From positions 4,800,001-4,864,000 of the forward strand of contig OZ242351.1 of assembly GCA_965208675.1 (NCBI GenBank): a stretch of 64,000 nt of DNA. Reading direction: 5' to 3'. A program made the translations under genes and the position numbers. Within the stretch, counting starts at the first letter, position 1. Each line of letters opens with the position of its first letter. Under the pieces are notes generated by a model. The model made no database searches and had not been told where the DNA came from. It saw only the letters and a program-made list of their open reading frames with translations. This document shows, piece by piece, positions 22,186-37,072 of this stretch. The DNA comes from Candidatus Poribacteria bacterium (GTDB taxonomy: Bacteria > Poribacteria > WGA-4E > PCPOR2b).

Positions 22186-22215
22186 ATTATACCAAACCCG
22201 ATTGTTAGATGTCAA
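22186..22215 (-). promoter_or_regulatory. Sigma70-type promoter of the str superoperon
   Basis: TTGACA-18 nt-TATAAT on the minus strand about 200 nt upstream of rpsL. Confidence 0.8.
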
Positions 22216-22352: not shown

Positions 22353-24044
22353 TTATTTTTTATAAGCGGATCGATCGGTATTTCCACCATATTTCATCGC
22401 ATACACAAACAGATTGACCATAAACCGGTGTACATCAGCGGAACGGCGCATCCTTAACATCGTCCGACTCGGGATTTCCGCTGTCTCCATCGCACAGAGA
22501 TAATCCTTCCGATTGTACAGCACTGCGACACGACGCCCAATCGTAATCGCCTTGTGAAACTTAAACTTTGTAACTTTAGGGTTATTTTCGGATCCCCAGT
22601 ACTCGTCGGATCCATTCGGCGGGACGGATAGCTTGTAATAGATGGAATATATCTCATGGCTATGAGGTATAGACTGAAGCGGATATTCTGGCAGGATTTT
22701 TTTCAATTCATCAGCGACACGCGCAGCGAACAATCCCTTGAACCCGCAATCATCGAAAAATAGCAGCCCGCCGCGTTCCACGAGGTATTTTCTCATCGCC
22801 GACCGTTCTGCAGGAGTAAAACCTACCATCCACGGCTCGCCCCGCATTAGATTACGCGTTGTGGTCAGTTCTTTATCGTGTCCGGTCATAACAATGATGG
22901 GTGCATCAAGGATTCGCGGATCTGTCATTCGCATGGCGCCGCCCTCCAGTTTCATATCCGCACGCAGGCGAGTGTTGTCCGATAACCACCGCATGAAACT
23001 CGGCAGCGCAGAAGGGTCTTGCCACCAATCTGCTAGTGAATGTATTAACCGTGTGAAACGGATGTGACCCTGTATGTCTGCGCCCTCACCCTCTAGAATA
23101 GCGCCTAACTTATCATCAGGCACCGTAGTGATTTTAGCCAACGGGTCGTCTCCAGCGCCACCGGCACCAGCGTCGGTTGCCCCAACTGCGCCCACAAGCG
23201 AGTCAATACCGCCCGTTCCGCTTCGACCGCGTCCGTTTATTGCCTCTGTACCTGACCCGCGCCCCTTATCGGGACCGCGACGCCCGCCGACCGCGGGAGC
23301 GATGACCTCCTCGTTACGCTTGGGTTGGATGTCTGCCACCGTCTTTACAGGACTATCTACAATCGTATCCGGAACTAATGGGGACACGTCCATCGACACG
23401 CGGCTTGGGGCAGCCGCGACAGGTCTAGCAACTCGCGGAGCAGACGACACTCGAACAGGTTGGGAAATCTGTTGCGCGGGTTGGCGCACCGGTTCAGGCG
23501 GTTTGGGCTTGATCTTTTTCAACCGTCTAACCTTCGGCTGCGGCTTCACCATCTCGACCGCAATCGCATCTTCAATTTCATCCGCGTCGTCCCTTGCAAA
23601 CAGGAAAATAGCGAACGCCAAGATAACGTGCGAGACCACAGAGATTACCATAGAATTGCGCGCAGTGCGACTTTTTGGGGTTACTACCGCGATCGCTGTT
23701 TCCGCCGCTGGAGATTGTGTCTCGTAGGTAGGTGCGCTCAGGTAATAGGTCTGTCCGCCGCAATCCACTTGCATTTGACCCTCCGGGAGCATGCGGAACT
23801 CGGCGCGTGCTCCGGCACGGATTACCTCACTCAGCCGTCTGACGGGCAGGATTACCGCCCCCGCTTGCGTAACCTCCGCGTCAATTGTAAATTTTGTGTC
23901 TGCGGTTGAAAGTTCTAGCTTATCGTTCCCGATGCTACGCACACGCACATCGGAGATAGACTCTAGCTGATTATCCCGGGCCGCCTGCGACTGGAGAGAC
24001 TTAATTGCTTTCAGAAGGTCCGCTTGTTTCGCTGTGAATTGCAT
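22353..24044 (-). CDS. Membrane-anchored protein: N-terminal beta-clamp(DnaN)-like domain, TM helix, Pro/Gly-rich linker, C-terminal DUF4159-like domain
   Basis: aa 1-105 resemble DnaN domain I; hydrophobic aa 132-150; C-terminus has MTGH, YLVERGGLLFFDDCG, IPHSHEIY and NLFVYAM motifs. Confidence 0.7.
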   Translation of the reverse strand: MQFTAKQADLLKAIKSLQSQAARDNQLESISDVRVRSIGNDKLELSTADTKFTIDAEVTQAGAVILPVRRLSEVIRAGARAEFRMLPEGQMQVDCGGQTYYLSAPTYETQSPAAETAIAVVTPKSRTARNSMVISVVSHVILAFAIFLFARDDADEIEDAIAVEMVKPQPKVRRLKKIKPKPPEPVRQPAQQISQPVRVSSAPRVARPVAAAPSRVSMDVSPLVPDTIVDSPVKTVADIQPKRNEEVIAPAVGGRRGPDKGRGSGTEAINGRGRSGTGGIDSLVGAVGATDAGAGGAGDDPLAKITTVPDDKLGAILEGEGADIQGHIRFTRLIHSLADWWQDPSALPSFMRWLSDNTRLRADMKLEGGAMRMTDPRILDAPIIVMTGHDKELTTTRNLMRGEPWMVGFTPAERSAMRKYLVERGGLLFFDDCGFKGLFAARVADELKKILPEYPLQSIPHSHEIYSIYYKLSVPPNGSDEYWGSENNPKVTKFKFHKAITIGRRVAVLYNRKDYLCAMETAEIPSRTMLRMRRSADVHRFMVNLFVYAMKYGGNTDRSAYKK

Positions 24045-24081
24045 AAGGTATTCCTTTTACTTTTACTGATGGTTTTTATGT

Positions 24082-25728
24082 TTATCCCATGTAGAGATTG
24101 CGCGATTGGAAGCCCATCGCCCTACCACGCCAATGGTGAACATCTGCATAATCCGACTTTAGCCGTACTGCTTCGTCAAAGTCCGCTATCGCTGCGGTGT
24201 ATTGTTTTAACCAATATCTTGTCCTTCCGCGCCAGTAGTAAGCATCAGCAAAATCCTTACTGAGCCTTAGCACCTCGTCGAAGTCTGAAATCGCTGCGGA
24301 GTATTGTTTTAAACGATACCTTTCCCGACCACGCAAGAAGTAACCATTGGCATCCGGACTCAAGCGTATTGATTCGTCTAAGGCTTTCGCCTGACGACAT
24401 GTGTTATCGTATCGTCCTACACATTCCTTCGCGGAATTACGCCAACGGTAGGCATTCAAACAATCGGGATTCAGGCGTATTGATTCATCAAAGTCCTGAA
24501 TAGCAGTTGCATATTGTCCTAACCCAAAATTTGAATAACCACGAAAGTAGAAGGCAATGGCAAGTGCTTCGTCAGTATGGTTATAGAGTAAGAGTGGTAT
24601 TGTTTCGTCTAAATCCTGAATGGCAGCTTCAAAATGTCCGTACTCAACCTTTGCTATACCACGCCAATAGAGGACATCTGCATAATCCGAATAACCCGAA
24701 CCACCCGAATAAACAGACTTCAATTGTATTGCGTGATCAAAGTCCGCAATCGCTGCGAAGTATTGTTTTAAACAATATCTCGTCCTGCCACGCCAGTAGT
24801 AAGCATCAGCATAATCCTTACTAAGCCTTATCACCTCGTCAAAGTCCGTTATCGCTGCGGAGTATTGTTCTGACCAATACCTTTCTATACCACGATCGTA
24901 GTAGATCCTACGGCACTTGTCATAGGCATCTGTATGATTCGGATTCAGCTGTATGGCTTCCTCAAAATCTGCTATTGCTGTGCTGTCTTGTTTTAACCTC
25001 CACTTCGTCATACCACGCCAATAATAGGCATCCGCATAATCAGATTTCAGTTGAATTGCTTCGTCGAAGTCCGTTATCGCTGTGGAGTATTGTTTCAACA
25101 AATTCTTCACCTTACCACGCCAGTAGTAGCCTTCCGCCCAGTTCGGATTTAGCCGTATTGCTTCGTCTAAATCCTGAATAGCGGTAGCGCCTCCGTCTAA
25201 ATGGGCTTTTACCCGACCACGCCAGCAATAGGCTTCAGCATAGTCTAGCTTAAGTCCAATGGCAGCGTCGAAATCCTTGATTGCTTCGGCATATTGCCCT
25301 AACTTTACTTTCTCCACACCACGCGCAAAGTAGCTAACAGCATGGGCTTCTCTATCCTGTTGCTCCTTCCGTGCTTTTTCCTGACGTTCTCGTTCCTCGC
25401 GCTCCTTTTCCCGACGTTTTCTTTTCTTTTGTTCCCTCGCCTTTTGTTCTTGGCGTTTCCTTTTCGCACGTGCTCTCGCTTCTCGTTTTTCGTGCTCTCT
25501 TTCTCGCCGTGCTTCTTCCGCTCTTGAGGAATCGTATTGCACTTGTTGGTAGGCGTTTGTAATCACCTCATATGCGTCTTGGACAAGTAAAAAGCGTTGT
25601 TTTGCGCCAGGGGAAGGGTCTTTGTCTGGATGTATGACTTTCACAAGGTCACGATAGGCTTTCTTGGCGTCGGCGAGTGTCGCGTTAGATTCCAATCCCA
25701 AAATACGCAATGCTTCGTCTGGTGTCAT
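24082..25728 (-). CDS. J-domain (DnaJ) plus charged linker plus TPR-repeat protein
   Basis: KKAYRDLVKVIHPDK (HPD motif); about ten AIxDFDEAIxLxxDYADAYYWRG repeats. Confidence 0.9.
   Translation of the reverse strand: MTPDEALRILGLESNATLADAKKAYRDLVKVIHPDKDPSPGAKQRFLLVQDAYEVITNAYQQVQYDSSRAEEARREREHEKREARARAKRKRQEQKAREQKKRKRREKEREERERQEKARKEQQDREAHAVSYFARGVEKVKLGQYAEAIKDFDAAIGLKLDYAEAYCWRGRVKAHLDGGATAIQDLDEAIRLNPNWAEGYYWRGKVKNLLKQYSTAITDFDEAIQLKSDYADAYYWRGMTKWRLKQDSTAIADFEEAIQLNPNHTDAYDKCRRIYYDRGIERYWSEQYSAAITDFDEVIRLSKDYADAYYWRGRTRYCLKQYFAAIADFDHAIQLKSVYSGGSGYSDYADVLYWRGIAKVEYGHFEAAIQDLDETIPLLLYNHTDEALAIAFYFRGYSNFGLGQYATAIQDFDESIRLNPDCLNAYRWRNSAKECVGRYDNTCRQAKALDESIRLSPDANGYFLRGRERYRLKQYSAAISDFDEVLRLSKDFADAYYWRGRTRYWLKQYTAAIADFDEAVRLKSDYADVHHWRGRAMGFQSRNLYMG
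24181..24894. repeat. Intragenic duplicated TPR-pair units (about 24181-24333 and 24741-24894)
   Basis: Near-identical DNA in both copies, e.g. CGCCAGTAGTAAGCATCAGCA-AATCCTTACT. Confidence 0.8.
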
Positions 25729-25784: not shown

Positions 25785-28700
25785 TTATCTGAGGATCGCC
25801 ATCTTTCGAGTCGCAGAGAAGCGGTTCGCGCTTAGCGTATAGAAATAAATTCCGCTCCCCACACGCTCCCCTAGGTCATTCCGCCCATCCCAATAGACCG
25901 CCTTGCTTGGGCTTTCGTACACGTCAGCCTTTTTGTTGCCGGATTCGATAGTTCTCACCAGGTTTCCACTCCGATTAAAGATGTTAACGGTGACTTTTGC
26001 ATCCTGCGCCAAGCGATACGGTATCCACGTTTCCGGGTTGAACGGATTTGGAAAATTCTGACCGAGTTCATTCATGAACCGCACCGTTTGCGGATTGGCG
26101 TTTTCAAGATGGGTTAGTTCTCCAAACACCGTTGGATCGTTGACCGAAAGTTCAAACAGATGTTCGTTAACCTTGAATATTTGGAGTGAGTAGAGATCTG
26201 CAACATAAACCGCGTCGTGGATGACCGCCAATTCCGACGGGAAGCGCAAGTTTTTGTAACGTGAAACCAACTCAAGATTGCGTATATCCACGATTTTAAG
26301 GGTTGTTCCATCTAGCAAGAATAGATAATCTCCACTTACTTTGGCATCAATCGGCAACCCATCCGTTTCATATTGCGCGATGCGAAACGGCCGCCGCGGA
26401 TCGCTAACGTCCAGAATCTGCACGCCGGAGCGGCTGTCAAGCACATACGCCCGGTTCTCAGCGACAGTCACATGTGTTGCATTGCCGTTCGTTTCGTAAC
26501 TCGCAACGGCGCGGGGCGCGGCTGGATTCTCTATGTCGAATATTCGTAAGCCCCCATCAAGGGCGGCGACGTAAGCGTACACACCGTCAATTGCCGATCG
26601 ATAGGCGTTCCCAGGCATACGTTGGCGCGCAACGACACGAATTCGGTTGAGGTCTCGCACATCAATGACGACGAAATCGCCTGCGCTGACGTAAGCGTAT
26701 CCGTTGTCAATCTCAATGCCCACCGCCGGTTCAGACGTTGAAATTCGCGCAATTGTGATGGGACGGATGACATTCCGCACATTCATGACGAATACTCCCC
26801 GTTCACCGCCCGCGATGTAGGCATGCCCGTTAAAAACTTGAACATCCGCAGCGGTTCCATCAATCGGTATGAATTGTGTTAAGGCCGCATCAAACGTGTC
26901 CTTTATGTCAACAACCTTCAATCCGCCGCGCCCATCAGCGATGAAGGCCTTCCGTCTCCCGTTTTCGCCCTGAACGATGTCAAGACCATAAGCTTCACCT
27001 GAAGCGACATGGCGATGCAACCACTGCGGACTACTCGGTCGGCTGACATCAACGGCATGCAAACTCCCGCTTCCATCCGCGATGTATGCAATGGTAGTTC
27101 CGTCGTTGGGTGTGTATAGGTCCACTCCCACTGCACTTCCGGTTATGGATTGACGGGCGACGAATTTAGGGCGGAGTGGATTACGAACGTCAATGAGATA
27201 AAATCCCGCCTGCACGTCGGTCAAATAGACGAACCCATCTTGGAATTTTATGCCATTTGAAGTTCCGGGTGTGCGCAGCGTCGAGATTATTTTTGGGTTG
27301 AATCGATCGCGTACATCGACAACTCGAAAGTCCCCCGATGCAACATAAACGTATCCGTCTTCGAAATGAAAATCGAAGCCGACAATGTCTATTTTACCAA
27401 CGATTGCGGGGATGTCGATTCGTTCAAAATCAAGAATTTGAAACCCTTGATTTCGATCACTCAAATACACGGTAGGACCTTCAACCCAGACATTCAGGGC
27501 TTCACCGAGCGTCTGAAACGCGCTAATCGGTTTCGGTTCGATTGAACTGTGCAATTCGTGTAAGTTATATATCAAGAGTCCCTCTTCACTATCAACTATG
27601 TAAGCATGCCCATTAGTTACCTGAATTCGATGAGCGAAGGTGAAACCCTTGACGGACTTCACGAGCTGCGGTGCCGCTGGTCGCCGAACATCAACAAGTT
27701 GAATGCCTTCCACTCCATCTGCGATGTAGGCTGTCCCGTCGTCAACGGCGGCATCTTGTGCGTTACCCGGTGTAGCAATTTCCCCGGTTCGCACTGGTTC
27801 TGTTGGGTTTTCGAAATTGAAGATTTCCAGTCCCCAGTCGCTCGCGGCAAACGCGTAATTCTCGACAACGACTACATTCTGATAGCTGCTAGATAGGTGT
27901 ACCTGACGCATCGGTTCCAGCTTATAGGAAATAGTTGGCAGTTTCTCGATTGGCTGCGAACGATTGCCAACGGTTCGCGTAATTTTGCCCGGCGCAACGA
28001 TTGGCAAATTAACCGGACGCGGCGCACCAACAACAATCCCGGAATTCCCATCAGATGTTCCTGCATACCGAAAAGATTGCGAGGTTGCAGTAGTTGCCAC
28101 TAGCATGACCTGATCCGACGGATTCAAATTGTTCAGCTCAAGGCGGGCATTGTCGTATTCATCAAATTGAAGCCGATGAATCATTGGCGAGCCGCGTTGC
28201 GGTATATGCACAACTTGTGCATACATTTCCCCATTGCCGGCTCCATCTAGGGCAATTTCAAGTTTAGGTGATAGATTCTGATAGGATACATAACGAACTC
28301 CCCAATCATCTAGGTTGTCCAATCGAATCGTGGGATAGCTGTTAACACGACGTTCAACGCCTCTATTGACGCGCTTATTTGGCAGGTTTTCATATCCGTA
28401 ATTGGCGCCGCGCCTGATGTCGTTGACGAAGTTAGCAATCGCCCAGTTTTGAAAAATATCGGCAAACCGTGCTGACCTACCTATCGACCCTAAAGCCGAA
28501 TTAATTCCGTCTATACCGAGCAGATCTTGTCGTGCAAGTTCACGAATGAACGCCGCGCCGCCGTAATTCTCGAATGCGTATAGCAGCAGCATGAAAGCAG
28601 CCCCGTAATAGACATCGCGGGTATTTCCAGACGTCAACGAAACGCTTGGATCTCTTAAATAACCATCGACAAAGATGTTGTGGACATTTCCGTAGATTGC

Positions 28701-29381
28701 CCATTCTGCGAACGACGCTATCCCCTCTTCCAACCAATTCTCATCGGTTGTTCCACCATTCTGATACCAATTGGCGAGGTGGGCAAATTCGTGGGCGAGC
28801 AGGGCGAGGAGGATAAAACGCCCCCGCTCCTTGAGCAGGTACACATCGGCAAAGATAATCTCGCGCCGGTTGCTATTGAAATCAGTCGGACGTTGATCGG
28901 TCGGTGAGAAATAACCGCCGATGTCTTGAGCTGAACCATTCAATCCCACATCGTGTATTAATAGTGTTACTCGGGCATCCCGGTCTAAGCCCGGCTTCCA
29001 TTCGCTGCCAATCCACCGGTGAACTTGCGGGTAGATTCGCGAATCAAATTCAGCTGCAATATCCTGTGCTTGTATTTCGTTTACTATACCGAGCACCGAA
29101 TTTTCGACGTAGATGTAGATATGCTCGCCGATGGCAATGCAAGTGCCTTTCACTAATTGTTCGGGGATATGTGTATAAAACCGTTCAATCTGCCCGAGGT
29201 GTATTTCAGGTGCCGGAGCGGCAGAAATTTCCGGCAATTGAAGAGCCGAGTGCGTATGCTGGGTGAGTTCCGGCGTTCCGCAGCGCCAATGTCCGCCATA
29301 AGGTGGATGCAGATGGATGGGTTGCGCGCAGACTTGATGAGCGATGCAACAAAAATATAAAAACAAATCGCAGCAACGCAT
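25785..29381 (-). CDS. Secreted zinc metalloprotease-like protein (M30/gluzincin-like HExxH) with LVIVD repeats and a C-terminal FlgD-Ig/sorting-type domain
   Basis: Signal-like N-terminus; AHEFAH...WLEEG; many AYIADG..GL..VDV..P repeats; QNFPNPFNPETWIPY...WDGRND.GE.V.SGIYFY. Confidence 0.8.
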   Translation of the reverse strand: MRCCDLFLYFCCIAHQVCAQPIHLHPPYGGHWRCGTPELTQHTHSALQLPEISAAPAPEIHLGQIERFYTHIPEQLVKGTCIAIGEHIYIYVENSVLGIVNEIQAQDIAAEFDSRIYPQVHRWIGSEWKPGLDRDARVTLLIHDVGLNGSAQDIGGYFSPTDQRPTDFNSNRREIIFADVYLLKERGRFILLALLAHEFAHLANWYQNGGTTDENWLEEGIASFAEWAIYGNVHNIFVDGYLRDPSVSLTSGNTRDVYYGAAFMLLLYAFENYGGAAFIRELARQDLLGIDGINSALGSIGRSARFADIFQNWAIANFVNDIRRGANYGYENLPNKRVNRGVERRVNSYPTIRLDNLDDWGVRYVSYQNLSPKLEIALDGAGNGEMYAQVVHIPQRGSPMIHRLQFDEYDNARLELNNLNPSDQVMLVATTATSQSFRYAGTSDGNSGIVVGAPRPVNLPIVAPGKITRTVGNRSQPIEKLPTISYKLEPMRQVHLSSSYQNVVVVENYAFAASDWGLEIFNFENPTEPVRTGEIATPGNAQDAAVDDGTAYIADGVEGIQLVDVRRPAAPQLVKSVKGFTFAHRIQVTNGHAYIVDSEEGLLIYNLHELHSSIEPKPISAFQTLGEALNVWVEGPTVYLSDRNQGFQILDFERIDIPAIVGKIDIVGFDFHFEDGYVYVASGDFRVVDVRDRFNPKIISTLRTPGTSNGIKFQDGFVYLTDVQAGFYLIDVRNPLRPKFVARQSITGSAVGVDLYTPNDGTTIAYIADGSGSLHAVDVSRPSSPQWLHRHVASGEAYGLDIVQGENGRRKAFIADGRGGLKVVDIKDTFDAALTQFIPIDGTAADVQVFNGHAYIAGGERGVFVMNVRNVIRPITIARISTSEPAVGIEIDNGYAYVSAGDFVVIDVRDLNRIRVVARQRMPGNAYRSAIDGVYAYVAALDGGLRIFDIENPAAPRAVASYETNGNATHVTVAENRAYVLDSRSGVQILDVSDPRRPFRIAQYETDGLPIDAKVSGDYLFLLDGTTLKIVDIRNLELVSRYKNLRFPSELAVIHDAVYVADLYSLQIFKVNEHLFELSVNDPTVFGELTHLENANPQTVRFMNELGQNFPNPFNPETWIPYRLAQDAKVTVNIFNRSGNLVRTIESGNKKADVYESPSKAVYWDGRNDLGERVGSGIYFYTLSANRFSATRKMAILR

Positions 29382-32785: not shown

Positions 32786-35700
32786 CTATTTCAAGATTAC
32801 CATTGGCCGCAATTGACGGAATGACGGCGTCCGTAGCTGGTAAAAGTAAAGACCGCTGGCAACCATTTCGCCGAGTTTATTACGGCCATCCCAGTAGGCA
32901 GCTTTTTCCTGCGCGGTATAATAGCCTGCCAACCGATGCCCTAGTTCCAGACTACGAACCGCTGCACCCTTAATATCAAATATCGTCAACGTGACGTTCG
33001 CATCGTCCGCCAACTGATATGGCATCCACGTCTCCGGATTGAACGGGTTCGGGTAGTTTGGCAACAGTGCCGTCTTGATAGGTATTTCGTATGCGGATAT
33101 TGCCGGCAACTGGATTTTATTGTTAATCACATCGCTGTCTGTTACCGTGTAGTGCAACGGCTGAACACCAATTAGCGGACGTGAGAATTCGGCAGAGATT
33201 TCAATGGCATCTCCGACCTGTGCCGCATGACTAGCTGCAGTTTCAACTAAGGTCAGTTGATAGCCAATCCCGTCTGTGTGCAGACTGCCACCGTCCGTTG
33301 TGTGAACCGTCGACTTCATGCCGGAAGCCAAATTTGTCAACGTTACCCTCAATTTTAGCGGCGTAATCGATAAATCGCTCTCCGGAGTTCCATTCTCGTA
33401 AATGATCGATCCGATTATGCACAATAGGGGCGTAGTTTTCGTAAAATTGATACCGTTGCGTGATAATGGCGCTGCGGCACCCGTGCCCGTGAATCCACCC
33501 CAACCATCGCCGGAGATTGCAATTGACGCTGCGGATTGTGCATCCATGATAAACGACTGACCGCCAGTTATGTGGACATCTCCGTCATCTCCTGCATGTT
33601 CAACGACCTTGAAAATTCCGTCAACTGACACTGTGACAGAAGATACATTGTCACGAATTCCTTCGAGAGCGAGCAGGTCGCTTACTCGTTCGATTCGTGA
33701 ATCGCGGAGAGGCACCGCCACGAGGTTTGTTCCTTGCATCAACGAAATTGTACTGCTCCCCTCTTCGCCGAGTGGGTGGCCTGTCAGAAGAAGTTCCACC
33801 GGCGCCCTCATACTTGCAATTATGCCTTCGTCATCTGTCAATTGAGGGTCTTCGGTTTTGCCTCGGCTGGAGTCTCCGAGGTAACTGTGCCACTGCTGCC
33901 TTTGGCGATCTCTAGTCGTGATCAAATTCACCGTCGCCGCTCCACCGAGGGCGTCGTAGAGGTCGCTAACAGATTCGATTGTACCTGTCTCCCCGTCAAC
34001 TGAAGTAACCCGCAATGGAATGTGTATCAAACTAGTACCCCTTGGTACCGAGAGAGCAAACTCGCGTCTTTTTGCAACGGCATTAAAGATTACCGGCGTC
34101 TCTACTCCCGCGGCGGACACTTCGGCCGTGTGTATTCCCGGATTTGTCCCTAAGGTTAACCAACTTTCCGATCTGCCGTTAGCGCCAGTTTGTGTGCTAG
34201 TAATGCTGAGTGTCCCATGCCCCGCGGTTACTGTAAAGGTCAGAACCACGCCTTCAAGCGGCGCACCTTTCTTGTCTTGTACTTCAACTACGAACGGGTC
34301 GCCAAGCATCGCACCTGGTAGTCCCTCCTGCAAATCACCTGAAATTATCACAATTTTGTTGGGAAATCGGACGCCTTCAGCATTGAAAATTATTGAACTG
34401 TCGATCCCAGACGCAGACACAGCGACCGTATTAGTTCCAGCGTTCGGTCCAAGGGTAAGTCTGCTTACTGCCCTTCCGTTACTATCGGTTTTAGTGCTTG
34501 TGGTGGACAATGATCCTCCTCCAGCAGTTGCCTCGAAGGTTACCTGAACCTCAGATAAGGGTTTATCCGACTGGTCTCTCACCTCAACAATTAGCGGATT
34601 TGGAAGTGTCTCGCCGGGGAAACCTTCTTGGTTATCGCCCGAGATTTTCGACAGTTCGTTAGCCACTCGAATTCCCTTTGCGGTAAAGGTCAGCGGCTGC
34701 GAAATCCCTTCGACTTTAACACGTACGGTGTTCCTTACCGAAACCTGCCCCAATGTAAGAGTACACTCTGCCCTGCCGTTGGAGTCGGTCGTTGCGTTAG
34801 GCGTATTGAGCGAGCCCCCGCCTTCCGTTACCGAAAACGCTACGGGAACCCCTTCAAATGCAAGACTGTTCTCATCCTTTACTTCGACGACGAACGGATT
34901 GGGAAGCGCTGCGCCGGGTGCACTGCTTTGGTTATTGCCAGAAACCTGGCTTAGTTCTGTTGGATTACGGTCGTCGAACATGATGTCTACGCCGCGTGCT
35001 TTTAGGGTTGGTATGTGCGATTTAATAGATTCGTAGCTAAGGAGGTTTTCGCGAAGGTTTATCTCGTCTCCGTTTCCCAATCCCATATTTGATACTAAAT
35101 TCGCAAGGTCTGATATTTTGTTGTCGGAAAGTTGGAGATTCCGCAGGGTCGTCAATCCCTCTAGCGACGAGATATCCGATACCTTATTGGCGTCGAGAAG
35201 AAGAGATTCCAAGTTGGTCAACCCCGCCAGCGGTGAGATGTCTTCTATTGAATTGTGTCTAAGCGCCAACAGCGTAAGACCGGTCAATTCCTCGACATCC
35301 GAGATTTCCGAAACTGAGTTGTCGTCAACGACGAGCCATGTCAGCTTGGTTAAACCTGACAATGGAGATAGGTCAGATATAGAGTTGCCGCTAAGCGCAA
35401 GTTGTATTAAGTTGACTAAACCGGCAAGCGGGTAAATGTCTTCGATTGAGTTGTGCCTTAGGTCTAGGTGCGTGAAGTTCACAGCGAACTCCATCCCAGT
35501 CAAATCACTAATGCCGAGGCTCCAGGTTCCCTCTTCAGTGAAGACTAGCGTCGCCATCTCAGCTTGGGATATCGGTTCCCCTGCTACCTTCTCAAGGGAT
35601 TTCTCAACAACGATGCGGAGTTTTGGGTCGGGAATCTCTACAGGCTGTCCCGCCGAAGCGTTAAAGGTCACCGTAAAACCCAAGGCAGAGGCATTGACGG

Positions 35701-37072
35701 TGTTTGGTCCTAGGTTGGGACCGAGTGTTAGTGTGCTCATTGCACTCCCGTTGTCAAGTGTCGATACGCCTGTTGTGCTGAGATTGCCGCCTCCGGCAGT
35801 CACGGAAAATGAAACCCAAACGCCAGGCCGCGCCAAACCGGTGTTTACATCGCGCAATTCGACGATAAAAGGGAGTGGCAACGGTGTACTGGGTAAGCCC
35901 GCCGGCTGATTATCGCCGGAGATTTTTGTCAGTGCATGAAGTGTTTCCGGAAAAAGGTTAAAATCGGTTTCGCTCTTATTTCCGTTTATGTCCACTACGA
36001 CAGCACGGATTGGGTGAACAGCGCGGTCGGAAAGACTTTCGAATTCCTAGAGGGTAAAATCGCCGTCATAATCGAATTCAACGGATCCTTGTTTTTCTCC
36101 TCGAAATTCACGGCACATCCTCAGCCTGTCGTTTCTCAGCCTGTTGTTCCTTAGTCTGTCAACGCCGAACACGAGCACTTGATGAAGCCCCTCGTAATCG
36201 GAAACCCTGAGTTGGATTGAGATAGTTTCCGAACCTGCCGCGTACCTACGCGGCGAAACGAGGTCGATAGCCGGTGGATTTCTAAACCCGGAAGAAATGG
36301 CGGGATTGAAATACCTCTGGATTTGCAGCCATTTGACAGCACACCGGGACAATCTCGTGGTTTGCCCCCATACCCACGGTCCGTAGGACATTACGTGTTC
36401 ATTGGCGCGGAAATCGTGTTTTAATCCGAAGGTATGGCCTAGTTCGTGTGCCGCGAGTGGATGGCTAAAAAACTTACCGGAGGCGGGGATAGCTGCGAAA
36501 CCGCCCCAATCCCGGTAAGTAGAACCAACACCTGCCGCATTACCAATCTGTTCGTTGCTGACATCCACGGCTGCCAAGTAGATGTTCTGCGAGGTATCAA
36601 ACCGTTTGTGGACTTCATTCCAGACCTGGTAAAAAGTTTCTAGCCTAGAACTGTGAGGAGAATCGCGGTAATAGGAATCGAAGAACTGCCCGTAGACTCG
36701 ATGTACCACCGCCTTCCCACTGTAATCAGTTTCGATGTTGAAGGTCCTTCTGCCGAAGCCGTGGTTTTCCATCTGGTCGGCATAGAATTCGCGGACACCT
36801 TTAATCAGCGTGTCCATTTTACTCTCAATGTCTTCCCTCGGTTGACGGTCAGCGGGAAGAAAGTAGATTAACCGCACCGTGCGCGGCGCACCGATGTCAC
36901 GATTTGCAAAGGTGCGGACAGGTTTCTGTGTGAACCCCTGGAGTTCAGAATAACCGCACAAATGGATTTCGTTACTCGGCAATAATGGGAAAGCGGCAAT
37001 CGCTGCTGAATCGTAGTATCCCAGATACACCGCAATCAAATAAAGGATAAGACGACGTAGGTGGGTTTTCAT
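32786..37072 (-). pseudogene. Secreted metzincin-like protease + Big-type Ig repeats + internalin-like LRR + FlgD-Ig domain; one 1428-codon frame interrupted by a single in-frame TAG at 36047-36049 (track ORFs 36047-37072 and 32786-35995)
   Basis: Both ORFs share a frame; translation reads DGDFTL*EFESLSDRAVHPIRAVVVDINGNK; HELGHTFGLKHD + Met-turn (VMSY); four ISGDNQ...PFxVEVRD repeats; LRRs; NYPNPFNPETW. Confidence 0.75.
36120..36164. repeat. Imperfect 15-bp tandem repeat x3 (encodes DRLRN/NRLRN/DRLRM)
   Basis: CTCAGCCTGTCGTTT / CTCAGCCTGTTGTTC / CTTAGTCTGTCAACG. Confidence 0.75.

Follow-up and report, generated by a model that had tools for sequence, protein, structure and literature searches.

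A Poribacteria inner-membrane protein that combines a diverged beta-clamp domain I, a TonB/TolA-type anchor and a DUF4159 domain

The stretch of DNA analysed here (the window) comprises 64,000 nucleotides of a Candidatus Poribacteria genome (assembly GCA_965208675.1, contig OZ242351.1, positions 4,800,001 to 4,864,000 of the forward strand), and the gene of interest occupies 22353..24044 on its minus strand, where the list of open reading frames (ORFs) holds a 563-residue ORF running from ATG to stop. The plus-strand frame over the same positions contains many stops. The unit, which also has full-length homologues, encodes from its N- to its C-terminus a domain resembling domain I of the sliding clamp DnaN, a transmembrane (TM) anchor, a linker and a DUF4159 domain; the gene is genuine and conserved in Poribacteria, and its product, a bitopic inner-membrane protein, is referred to below as the fusion protein. 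An earlier note on this DNA had described a clamp-like domain, a TM helix, a linker and a DUF4159 domain at 22353-24044 without naming a strand; all of these elements are found, and the gene lies on the minus strand.

Residues 1 to about 105 are a diverged homologue, or paralogue, of domain I of the beta clamp (DnaN). The corresponding domain (N-domain; residues 1 to 110, 23715..24044, minus strand), probably cytoplasmic, is delimited by profile searches, AlphaFold2 modelling, Foldseek, BLASTP and substitution rates. Single-sequence searches of the PDB and Pfam are too weak to decide its identity, and orthologue profiles were needed: PF00712 matches residues 1 to 77 at 16.3 bits (E 0.011), under its cut-off of 24.4, 5wce_A reaches an E-value of only 0.43 in a PDB search with the whole protein, and TIGR00663 in the NCBIfam scan matches residues 1 to 90 at 17.8 bits (E 0.0013; cut-off 137.65). 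The N-domain alignment consists of the window sequence and those of 11 further loci, that is, 12 of the 15 N-domain sequences available; L002, which hardly differs from the window sequence, the second copy in the same genome and L010, which is truncated, were excluded. Orthologues are 25-43% identical in this domain. Searched against the PDB, the 12-sequence profile returns 50 matches at E <= 10, 49 of them beta clamps aligned residue 1 on residue 1, with 5wce_A as the best match (E 4.8e-6) and an ion channel (E 0.69) as the one non-clamp. Among 1.84e9 representative proteins, 2,217 match with E <= 0.001, headed by the protein's own family (about 570 residues, plus fragments), which is followed directly by DnaNs of about 365 residues from E 1.3e-13. 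The N-domains of three of five relatives searched also exceed the gathering score of PF00712 (24.4), at 33.5, 31.3 and 29.5 bits.

The AlphaFold2 model of the N-domain alignment (predicted local distance difference test, pLDDT, 82; predicted template modelling score, pTM, 0.69) has an order of strands and helices that agrees with what we take to be the clamp-domain fold. Foldseek finds 179 PDB matches to this model at E <= 0.001, and all among those listed are sliding clamps (best E 3.6e-6, template modelling score for the query, TMq, about 0.74). The genome also carries a complete dnaN gene elsewhere (C1:3.25 Mb), and BLASTP aligns residues 1-100 of the N-domain with residues 1-105 of its 367-residue product at 29% identity over 106 residues (E 1e-11). 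A hidden Markov model (HMM) of the N-domain gives this DnaN 67.7 bits and the best DnaN representative among the 1.84e9 proteins 67.4. Because the genome's own DnaN scores as high as any library DnaN, the N-domain may have originated by partial duplication of a Poribacteria dnaN, an origin that would fit the scores. Profile, model, Foldseek matches and alignment to the own DnaN all agree with the earlier proposal that residues 1-105 follow beta-clamp domain I; a clamp fold is found, and the top structural matches are sliding clamps throughout.

Alignment of the 12 N-domains with 10 Poribacteria DnaNs shows that most of the invariant domain-I residues are replaced. The DnaN consensus segments G-R-N-T-L-P-I-L-S-N and T-D-L-E are not kept; conservation is limited to the pattern of hydrophobic residues, to L-L-K-A in helix 1 and to C-G-x-Q in the last hairpin, where a C-G-x-x-x-Y pattern is common to the N-domains and Poribacteria DnaN. 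G96 and Q98 are near-invariant across the N-domain family, and the basic residues of the two helices are not conserved across it. Real clamps are soluble, possess three such domains and bind peptides in a cleft between domains II and III. The three tandem clamp domains (about 365 residues) are absent from the fusion protein, in which only residues 1 to about 105 match clamps and the rest is TM helix, linker and DUF4159. With one domain in place of three, the peptide-binding cleft of domains II and III cannot exist here and, since most invariant residues of DnaN domain I are lost as well, the N-domain is not a DNA-encircling clamp. A complex prediction that paired the N-domain alignment with an alignment of the own DnaN and 39 of 150 listed proteins scored 0.00 against a mark of 0.32 when run without controls; by the rule of the tool, such an outcome is evidence neither for nor against contact between the two.

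The protein has a single Kyte-Doolittle peak, in windows starting at residues 128-134, and the helix is placed at residues 131-150 (23595..23654, minus strand), close to the 132-150 of the earlier note. Between the N-domain and the helix lies a short tether (residues 111-130; 23655..23714, minus strand), read from sequence and charge as cytoplasmic with a basic juxtamembrane end (K124, R126, R129); its residues 111-115 are modelled with pLDDT < 50. Net charge is +3 in the 15 residues before the helix and -6 in the 15 after it. No N-terminal signal peptide is present on the fusion protein, and a stand-alone 225-residue DUF4159 paralogue of the same genome begins with a typical one. Because of the charge bias, the missing signal peptide and the signal peptide of the paralogue, standard rules predict an N-in topology, with the clamp-like domain in the cytoplasm and DUF4159 in the periplasm. 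Homology, fold and predicted topology support the idea, put forward in the earlier note, of a single clamp-fold domain serving as the cytoplasmic module of a bitopic protein.

The helix, defined by hydrophobicity, conservation and HMM searches, carries a Ser135-x3-His139 motif of the TonB/TolA type. Among 80 family members, His139 is invariant (80/80) and a serine stands four residues before it, at the position of Ser135, in 67/80; in the family the helix is followed by a D-A-I-x-V-E-W/M-V segment and then by prolines. An HMM of this TM module (residues 120-172 of 80 sequences) was searched against the 29,359 stop-to-stop ORFs of at least 60 residues of the same genome. Ranks 1-4 are the two fusion genes of the genome and two 411-residue VWA proteins, rank 5 is another VWA protein, and ranks 6 and 7 are the only two TonB_C proteins of the genome (E 1.2e-3 and 1.8e-3). 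Both of these TonBs, as well as other DUF4159 paralogues, have a helix with the same S-x3-H arrangement, and BLASTP against one of the TonBs places TM on TM and post-TM on post-TM (32% over 88 residues, E 0.098). A cryo-electron microscopy study of the Ton and Tol motors (PMC12215075) describes an SHLS motif of which the Ser-x3-His half is the conserved part and contacts a Ser and a Trp of ExbB/TolQ TM1, the Leu and Ser positions being less conserved in Ton. Compared by eye, the helix of the fusion protein agrees at 8 of 14 positions with the TolA helix shown in that study. There is good support for assigning the helix, together with the roughly 25 residues that follow, to the TonB/TolA type, with Ser-x3-His and then a Pro/Lys-rich spacer, and this anchor points to an envelope protein that would be coupled to a proton motor.

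At least a dozen proteins of the same genome display the same Ser-x3-His TM anchor with different periplasmic heads (VWA, DUF4159, TonB_C), among them those encoded at C1:2309819-2311054, 4491580-4492815, 2618024-2620135 and 4059662-4060939, with further examples at C1:652323-653831, 1278644-1280122, 4269106-4270689 and 4542722-4544215; envelope proteins with a TonB/TolA anchor thus seem to have expanded in number here. PF01618 identifies three ExbB/TolQ-like genes in the genome, none of which adjoins the fusion gene, and two ORFs after one of them appear ExbD-like when judged by eye rather than by a family scan.

Residues 151-305 (23130..23594, minus strand) form the putative periplasmic connection, which opens with an acidic patch and a strand-like D-A-I-x-V-E-x-V segment and continues as a Pro/Lys-rich and then Gly-rich linker, as judged from composition, conservation, the TonB alignment and substitution rates. 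Within the linker (residues 166-305), 13% of residues are Pro, 12% Gly and 16% Lys or Arg, with repeats of the K-P-K-P-P-E-P type. The earlier note had called this linker TonB-like and Pro/Gly-rich, which its composition bears out, and had missed that the whole anchor, with its Ser-x3-His motif, is of the TonB/TolA type.

The highly conserved C-terminal domain (C-domain; residues 306-563, 22356..23129, minus strand), predicted to be periplasmic, was delimited by PF13709, AlphaFold2, Foldseek and substitution rates. PF13709 matches residues 329-550 (22395-23060, minus strand) at 98.4 bits against a cut-off of 25.9 and over profile positions 1-202 of 202, so that what had been called DUF4159-like is DUF4159 proper. 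The AlphaFold2 model of the domain (pLDDT 72.9, pTM 0.79), made from 20 sequences of loci whose match reaches the last residue, has one strong Foldseek match, the uncharacterised Hoch_4089 of Haliangium ochraceum (4i66, E 2.2e-8); weaker matches are ThuA-like and class-I amidotransferase folds (glutamine amidotransferase, GATase, E > 0.01). The C-domain is thereby predicted to have a class-I glutamine-amidotransferase-like/flavodoxin-like fold. In the Poribacteria subfamily, an invariant D-D-C-G-F directly follows a beta strand (residues 431-435) and an H-x-H-E comes further on (residues 461-464); the two recall the nucleophile elbow and the His/Glu of class-I amidotransferases. A candidate Cys433-His463-Glu464 triad was dropped; the GATase matches are weak, and Tyr takes the place of the Cys in a stand-alone DUF4159 protein of the same genome. 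About ten DUF4159 genes are present in the genome, together with several VWA proteins that have the same anchor. The stand-alone 225-residue DUF4159 protein is the best DUF4159 match of the genome (E 6e-57); it is encoded just before the window start, where C1:4797275-4799336 (L082:24-2085) holds a 412-residue protein with a C-terminal TM helix and then the 225-residue protein. In full-text literature, outside subscription journals and supplements, the Pfam paper is the only one found to mention DUF4159, and no function of the family was found described.

Homologues of the fusion protein are listed in databases as 'DUF4159 domain-containing' or 'hypothetical'; 36 of the 120 listed cover the whole protein at 45-97% identity, and three of those listed have a precomputed PF00712 match. 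Relatives are encoded by 241 stretches of GTDB species genomes, and the best 80 loci all belong to Poribacteria or to unnamed metagenome-assembled genomes. The N-domain is present at 13 of these 80 loci; upstream of the other 67, six-frame ORFs hold no remnant of it at E <= 1. Across the phylum, the fusion is found in 11 of 151 sampled genomes, representing 7 of 22 genera and 4 of 9 families, and five relatives have exactly one fusion gene and one normal dnaN each. In a quick maximum-likelihood tree of the C-terminal 265 residues, whose topology is provisional, the 15 rows with an N-domain (of 82) cluster and require a minimum of 2 changes, a value that none of 500 shuffles matched; the fusion may have a single origin. 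Ratios of non-synonymous to synonymous substitution rates (dN/dS), taken pairwise among five close copies, are 0.16-0.37 for the N-domain, 0.10-0.21 for TM helix and linker, and 0.02-0.06 for the C-domain. Purifying selection thus acts on the N-domain too, less strictly than on the C-domain, and of all parts of the protein the DUF4159 domain is under the strongest constraint.

The ORF is uninterrupted in the closed chromosomes of three genomes of the same genus, as well as in other genera and families. The runs in which the stretch occurs are sponge metagenomes, and none of the 24 listed is an RNA run. Contigs from two studies bridge the domain junction, in run X1, a possible source sample, over 22977-23926 (950 bp) with 0 differences and in run X5, of another study, over 22965-24144 (1,180 bp) with 43 differences, both free of indels. 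A search in other genomes and read support across the junction, both suggested in the earlier note, therefore show the fusion in many independent assemblies and in bridging contigs; it is neither unique to this assembly nor unsupported. One contig each of runs X1 and X7 joins 22508/22514 to 23014, skipping about 500 bases inside the DUF4159 region, with 30 letters only on the shorter side. These joins are most likely cross-links between conserved DUF4159 paralogues in the assembly graphs and not a deletion variant.

Outside the window, at C1:3036876-3039496 (L090:6874-9446, minus strand), the same genome has a second copy of the fusion gene (P0010; C1:3.04 Mb), which is 80% identical to the first. 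Its start codon lies 4 bases before the stop of a 289-residue tonB (TonB_C E 4.5e-22), which it overlaps. ORF clustering at the 80 loci and the neighbour scans revealed no conserved neighbourhood among N-domain genes. Subfamilies that lack the N-domain occur beside an ABC transporter and DUF1854, beside pyrimidine and diaminopimelate (DAP) genes, or beside Omp85/DUF4252. Adjacency to rpsL-rpsG-fusA-tuf is confined to the genus of the window. In the window, a perfect 12/12 sigma-70 promoter match with an extended -10 TG lies between the fusion stop and rpsL (22186-22215, minus strand); it is presumably the promoter of the rpsL-rpsG-fusA-tuf operon, and with such a promoter of its own for the operon the fusion gene need not be co-transcribed with it.

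Upstream, a gene for a 548-residue protein (24082-25728, minus strand) ends 37 bases from the fusion gene, a pairing kept only within the genus (L002-L004). This protein begins with a DnaJ (J) domain and also has a highly charged Lys/Glu/Arg stretch and numerous tetratricopeptide repeats. Beyond it are two very large proteins (25785-29381 and 32786-35995, both minus strand) whose C-termini are of the FlgD-Ig/CHU_C type, a sorting signal like that of type IX secretion. LVIVD repeats are present in one of them, and leucine-rich repeats, Big_1 and invasin-like domains in the other. Such domains are typical of the 'eukaryote-like' surface proteins of sponge symbionts. In other lineages, a Y-family DNA polymerase (IMS/DinB; L006, 4439-5560, minus strand) lies divergently upstream of the fusion gene and an SOS-response-associated peptidase (SRAP; L008, 7721-8407, minus strand) convergently downstream, and a 222-residue ORF after the fusion gene in L009 resembles the latter in position and size. 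The products of these two families work on damaged DNA, and DinB is one of the clients of the clamp; the presence of DNA-damage genes beside the fusion gene could be chance.

On balance, we consider it reasonably probable that the fusion protein works as a transducer in the manner of TonB or TolA, with DUF4159 as its head in the periplasm and the domain derived from the clamp as a docking module in the cytoplasm. The helix would dock on the outside of an ExbB/TolQ-type proton-driven motor, the extended Pro/Lys linker would carry the DUF4159 head across the periplasm, and the clamp-derived domain, about 20 residues below the membrane, would act as a cytoplasmic protein-docking or regulatory module, comparable to the domains that GltJ, a TonB-like gliding protein, has at its cytoplasmic N-terminus. 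Several observations weigh against this. The full SHLS motif is not present, as its Leu and Ser are replaced by Ile146 and Ala150 in the fusion protein and the family columns are V/A/I and I/L/F; the Pfam scan finds neither TonB_C (PF03544) nor a TolA C-terminal domain at E <= 10, DUF4159 taking their place; and the matches of the TM-module HMM to the TonBs are weak (about 19 bits), where short segments of TM helix plus prolines can converge. The anchor also heads VWA and DUF4159 proteins of the same genome and so may be typical of the lineage without any coupling to a motor. The adjacency to tonB is known only for the extra copy in this genome, while the five relatives have one fusion gene each, and in four of these five tonB is not among the scanned neighbours (L002-L004 by tblastn with window genes; 2-4 flanking ORFs each in L006 and L007). 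Neither exbB nor exbD stands next to the fusion gene, and neighbourhoods differ between genera. Evolution is several-fold faster in the N-domain than in the C-domain, a difference that is also compatible with a spacer or oligomerisation knob under loose constraint, and no experimental or computed interaction stands behind any candidate partner of the clamp-like domain.

Some of these points recur in an unlikely alternative, according to which the S-x3-H helix is a lineage-typical signal-anchor without a motor, the protein is a tethered periplasmic DUF4159 protein of the Bat/VWA-associated kind, and the clamp-derived domain is a loosely constrained cytoplasmic knob, serving for example in dimerisation or stability. 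The same anchor before VWA and other DUF4159 heads, the 67 of 80 family loci without an N-domain, the several-fold higher dN/dS of the N-domain than of the C-domain and the lack of a conserved exbBD neighbourhood are all in its favour. However, a passive anchor can hardly account for a mid-helix His that is invariant in 80/80 and has a Ser four positions earlier, the very pair of residues by which TonB and TolA make contact. The N-domain, moreover, has been retained long enough for its orthologues to diverge to 25-43% identity, and these are still modelled with the clamp fold.

It is less probable that the N-domain keeps the head-to-tail dimer edge of DnaN domain I and binds domain III of DnaN, or a replisome or repair protein that touches domain I, so that clamps would be held or sequestered at the membrane and the state of the envelope coupled to replication or repair. 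No DnaN outscores Poribacteria's own with the N-domain profile, and the C-G-x-x-x-Y pattern shared with Poribacteria DnaN and the near-invariant G96 and Q98 fall in the last hairpin, a strand of which we take to lie at the clamp dimer interface; DNA-damage genes adjoin the fusion gene in two lineages (L006, Y-family polymerase; L008, SRAP). On the other hand, most of the invariant domain-I residues of Poribacteria DnaN are replaced, just 2 of about 9 contexts include a DNA-damage neighbour, in neither case as part of an operon with the fusion gene, and bacterial clamp dimers are very stable, so that a lone domain would compete poorly.

A homo-oligomeric ring, in which six membrane-anchored N-domains would join head-to-tail into a pseudo-clamp under the membrane, is very improbable, even though a clamp ring consists of six copies of the fold with inter-domain and inter-subunit joints alike. 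Held by six 20-residue linkers and lying flat under the membrane, such a ring could hardly be threaded by DNA; the basic residues on the two helices are not conserved in the family; and TonB and TolA sit on their motors singly or in pairs (PMC12215075). The earlier note had offered a ring, or contact with DnaN or the clamp loader, as what the domain might do; nothing computed supports either, and most of the residues strictly conserved in domain I of Poribacteria DnaN are lost. An artefact, in which a chimeric assembly or a mis-called start joined a dnaN fragment to a DUF4159 gene, has nothing in its favour and can be dismissed, as the same ORF recurs in three closed chromosomes of the genus and also outside it, in further genera and families, as the contigs that span the junction in two studies show no indels, and as a complete dnaN lies elsewhere (C1:3.25 Mb).

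The architecture of clamp domain, TM helix and DUF4159 was not found described in full-text literature outside subscription journals and supplements, consistent with the earlier note, whose author knew of no described protein of this kind. To our knowledge, the only proteins in which the clamp fold has been described are DNA clamps that form rings, together with close relatives of these. That a single domain I, tethered to the membrane, is kept under selection indicates that the clamp fold can be reused outside DNA sliding, and residues 1-110 offer a defined handle on what binds the domain-I surface. Stand-alone single clamp-like domains may also exist in phages, because PF00712 is found on 38% of the members of one cluster in the ESM Atlas, where the nearest clusters by language-model features are proteins of 112-124 residues, mostly from tailed phages (score 0.89, a lead only). 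Judging from the large set of Ser-x3-His anchors with non-TonB heads (DUF4159, VWA) in this genome and in related ones of Poribacteria, coupling to the proton motor may have roles in the periplasm beyond nutrient uptake and Tol-Pal, and the anchor gives the DUF4159 family a first mechanistic lead. It is a long shot that the recruited domain I, on a proton-motor-coupled envelope protein, docks the genome's own clamp, or else some factor of repair or replication that recognises the rim of domain I; if true, the replisome or DNA-damage machinery of these uncultured sponge symbionts would be linked directly to a periplasmic DUF4159 effector, in a trans-envelope signalling or tethering device of an undescribed kind.

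Compared with known systems, the fusion protein is neither a DnaN, for which its architecture and invariant residues fail, nor a TonB, as it has no TonB_C; it is part of each plus DUF4159. With DnaN (PF00712/PF02767/PF02768; TIGR00663) it shares domain-I homology from residue 1, the predicted fold and 29% identity to the own DnaN, but it has one domain, no II/III cleft and a membrane tether, and dnaN is a separate gene. Like other DUF4159 proteins (e.g., Hoch_4089, PDB 4i66, and Bat/VWA-type envelope proteins), it matches PF13709 clearly and has 4i66 as its best structure, whereas the Poribacteria subfamily has invariant residues of its own, such as the D-D-C-G-F that has Tyr for Cys in the stand-alone paralogue. 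The likeness to TonB and TolA comprises the single, predicted N-in TM helix with Ser-x3-His, the strand-like post-helix segment, the Pro/Lys-rich spacer and an HMM that finds both TonBs; unlike them, the fusion protein has DUF4159 in place of TonB_C or the TolA C-terminal domain, no adjacent motor gene, and a folded 105-residue cytoplasmic domain where TonB and TolA have a short N-terminal tail. GltJ and GltG of the Myxococcus gliding machinery have an analogous architecture, in which a folded N-terminal module in the cytoplasm is joined to a TM helix like that of TonB and to a periplasmic region rich in Pro, and NCBIfam NF033761 places residues 99-238 of the fusion protein on GltJ 344-472 (E 0.018, 14.2 bits). 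That match is far under the cut-off of 450, however, and the cytoplasmic and periplasmic domains are different ones, so that GltJ and GltG provide an analogy and not a family to which the fusion protein belongs.

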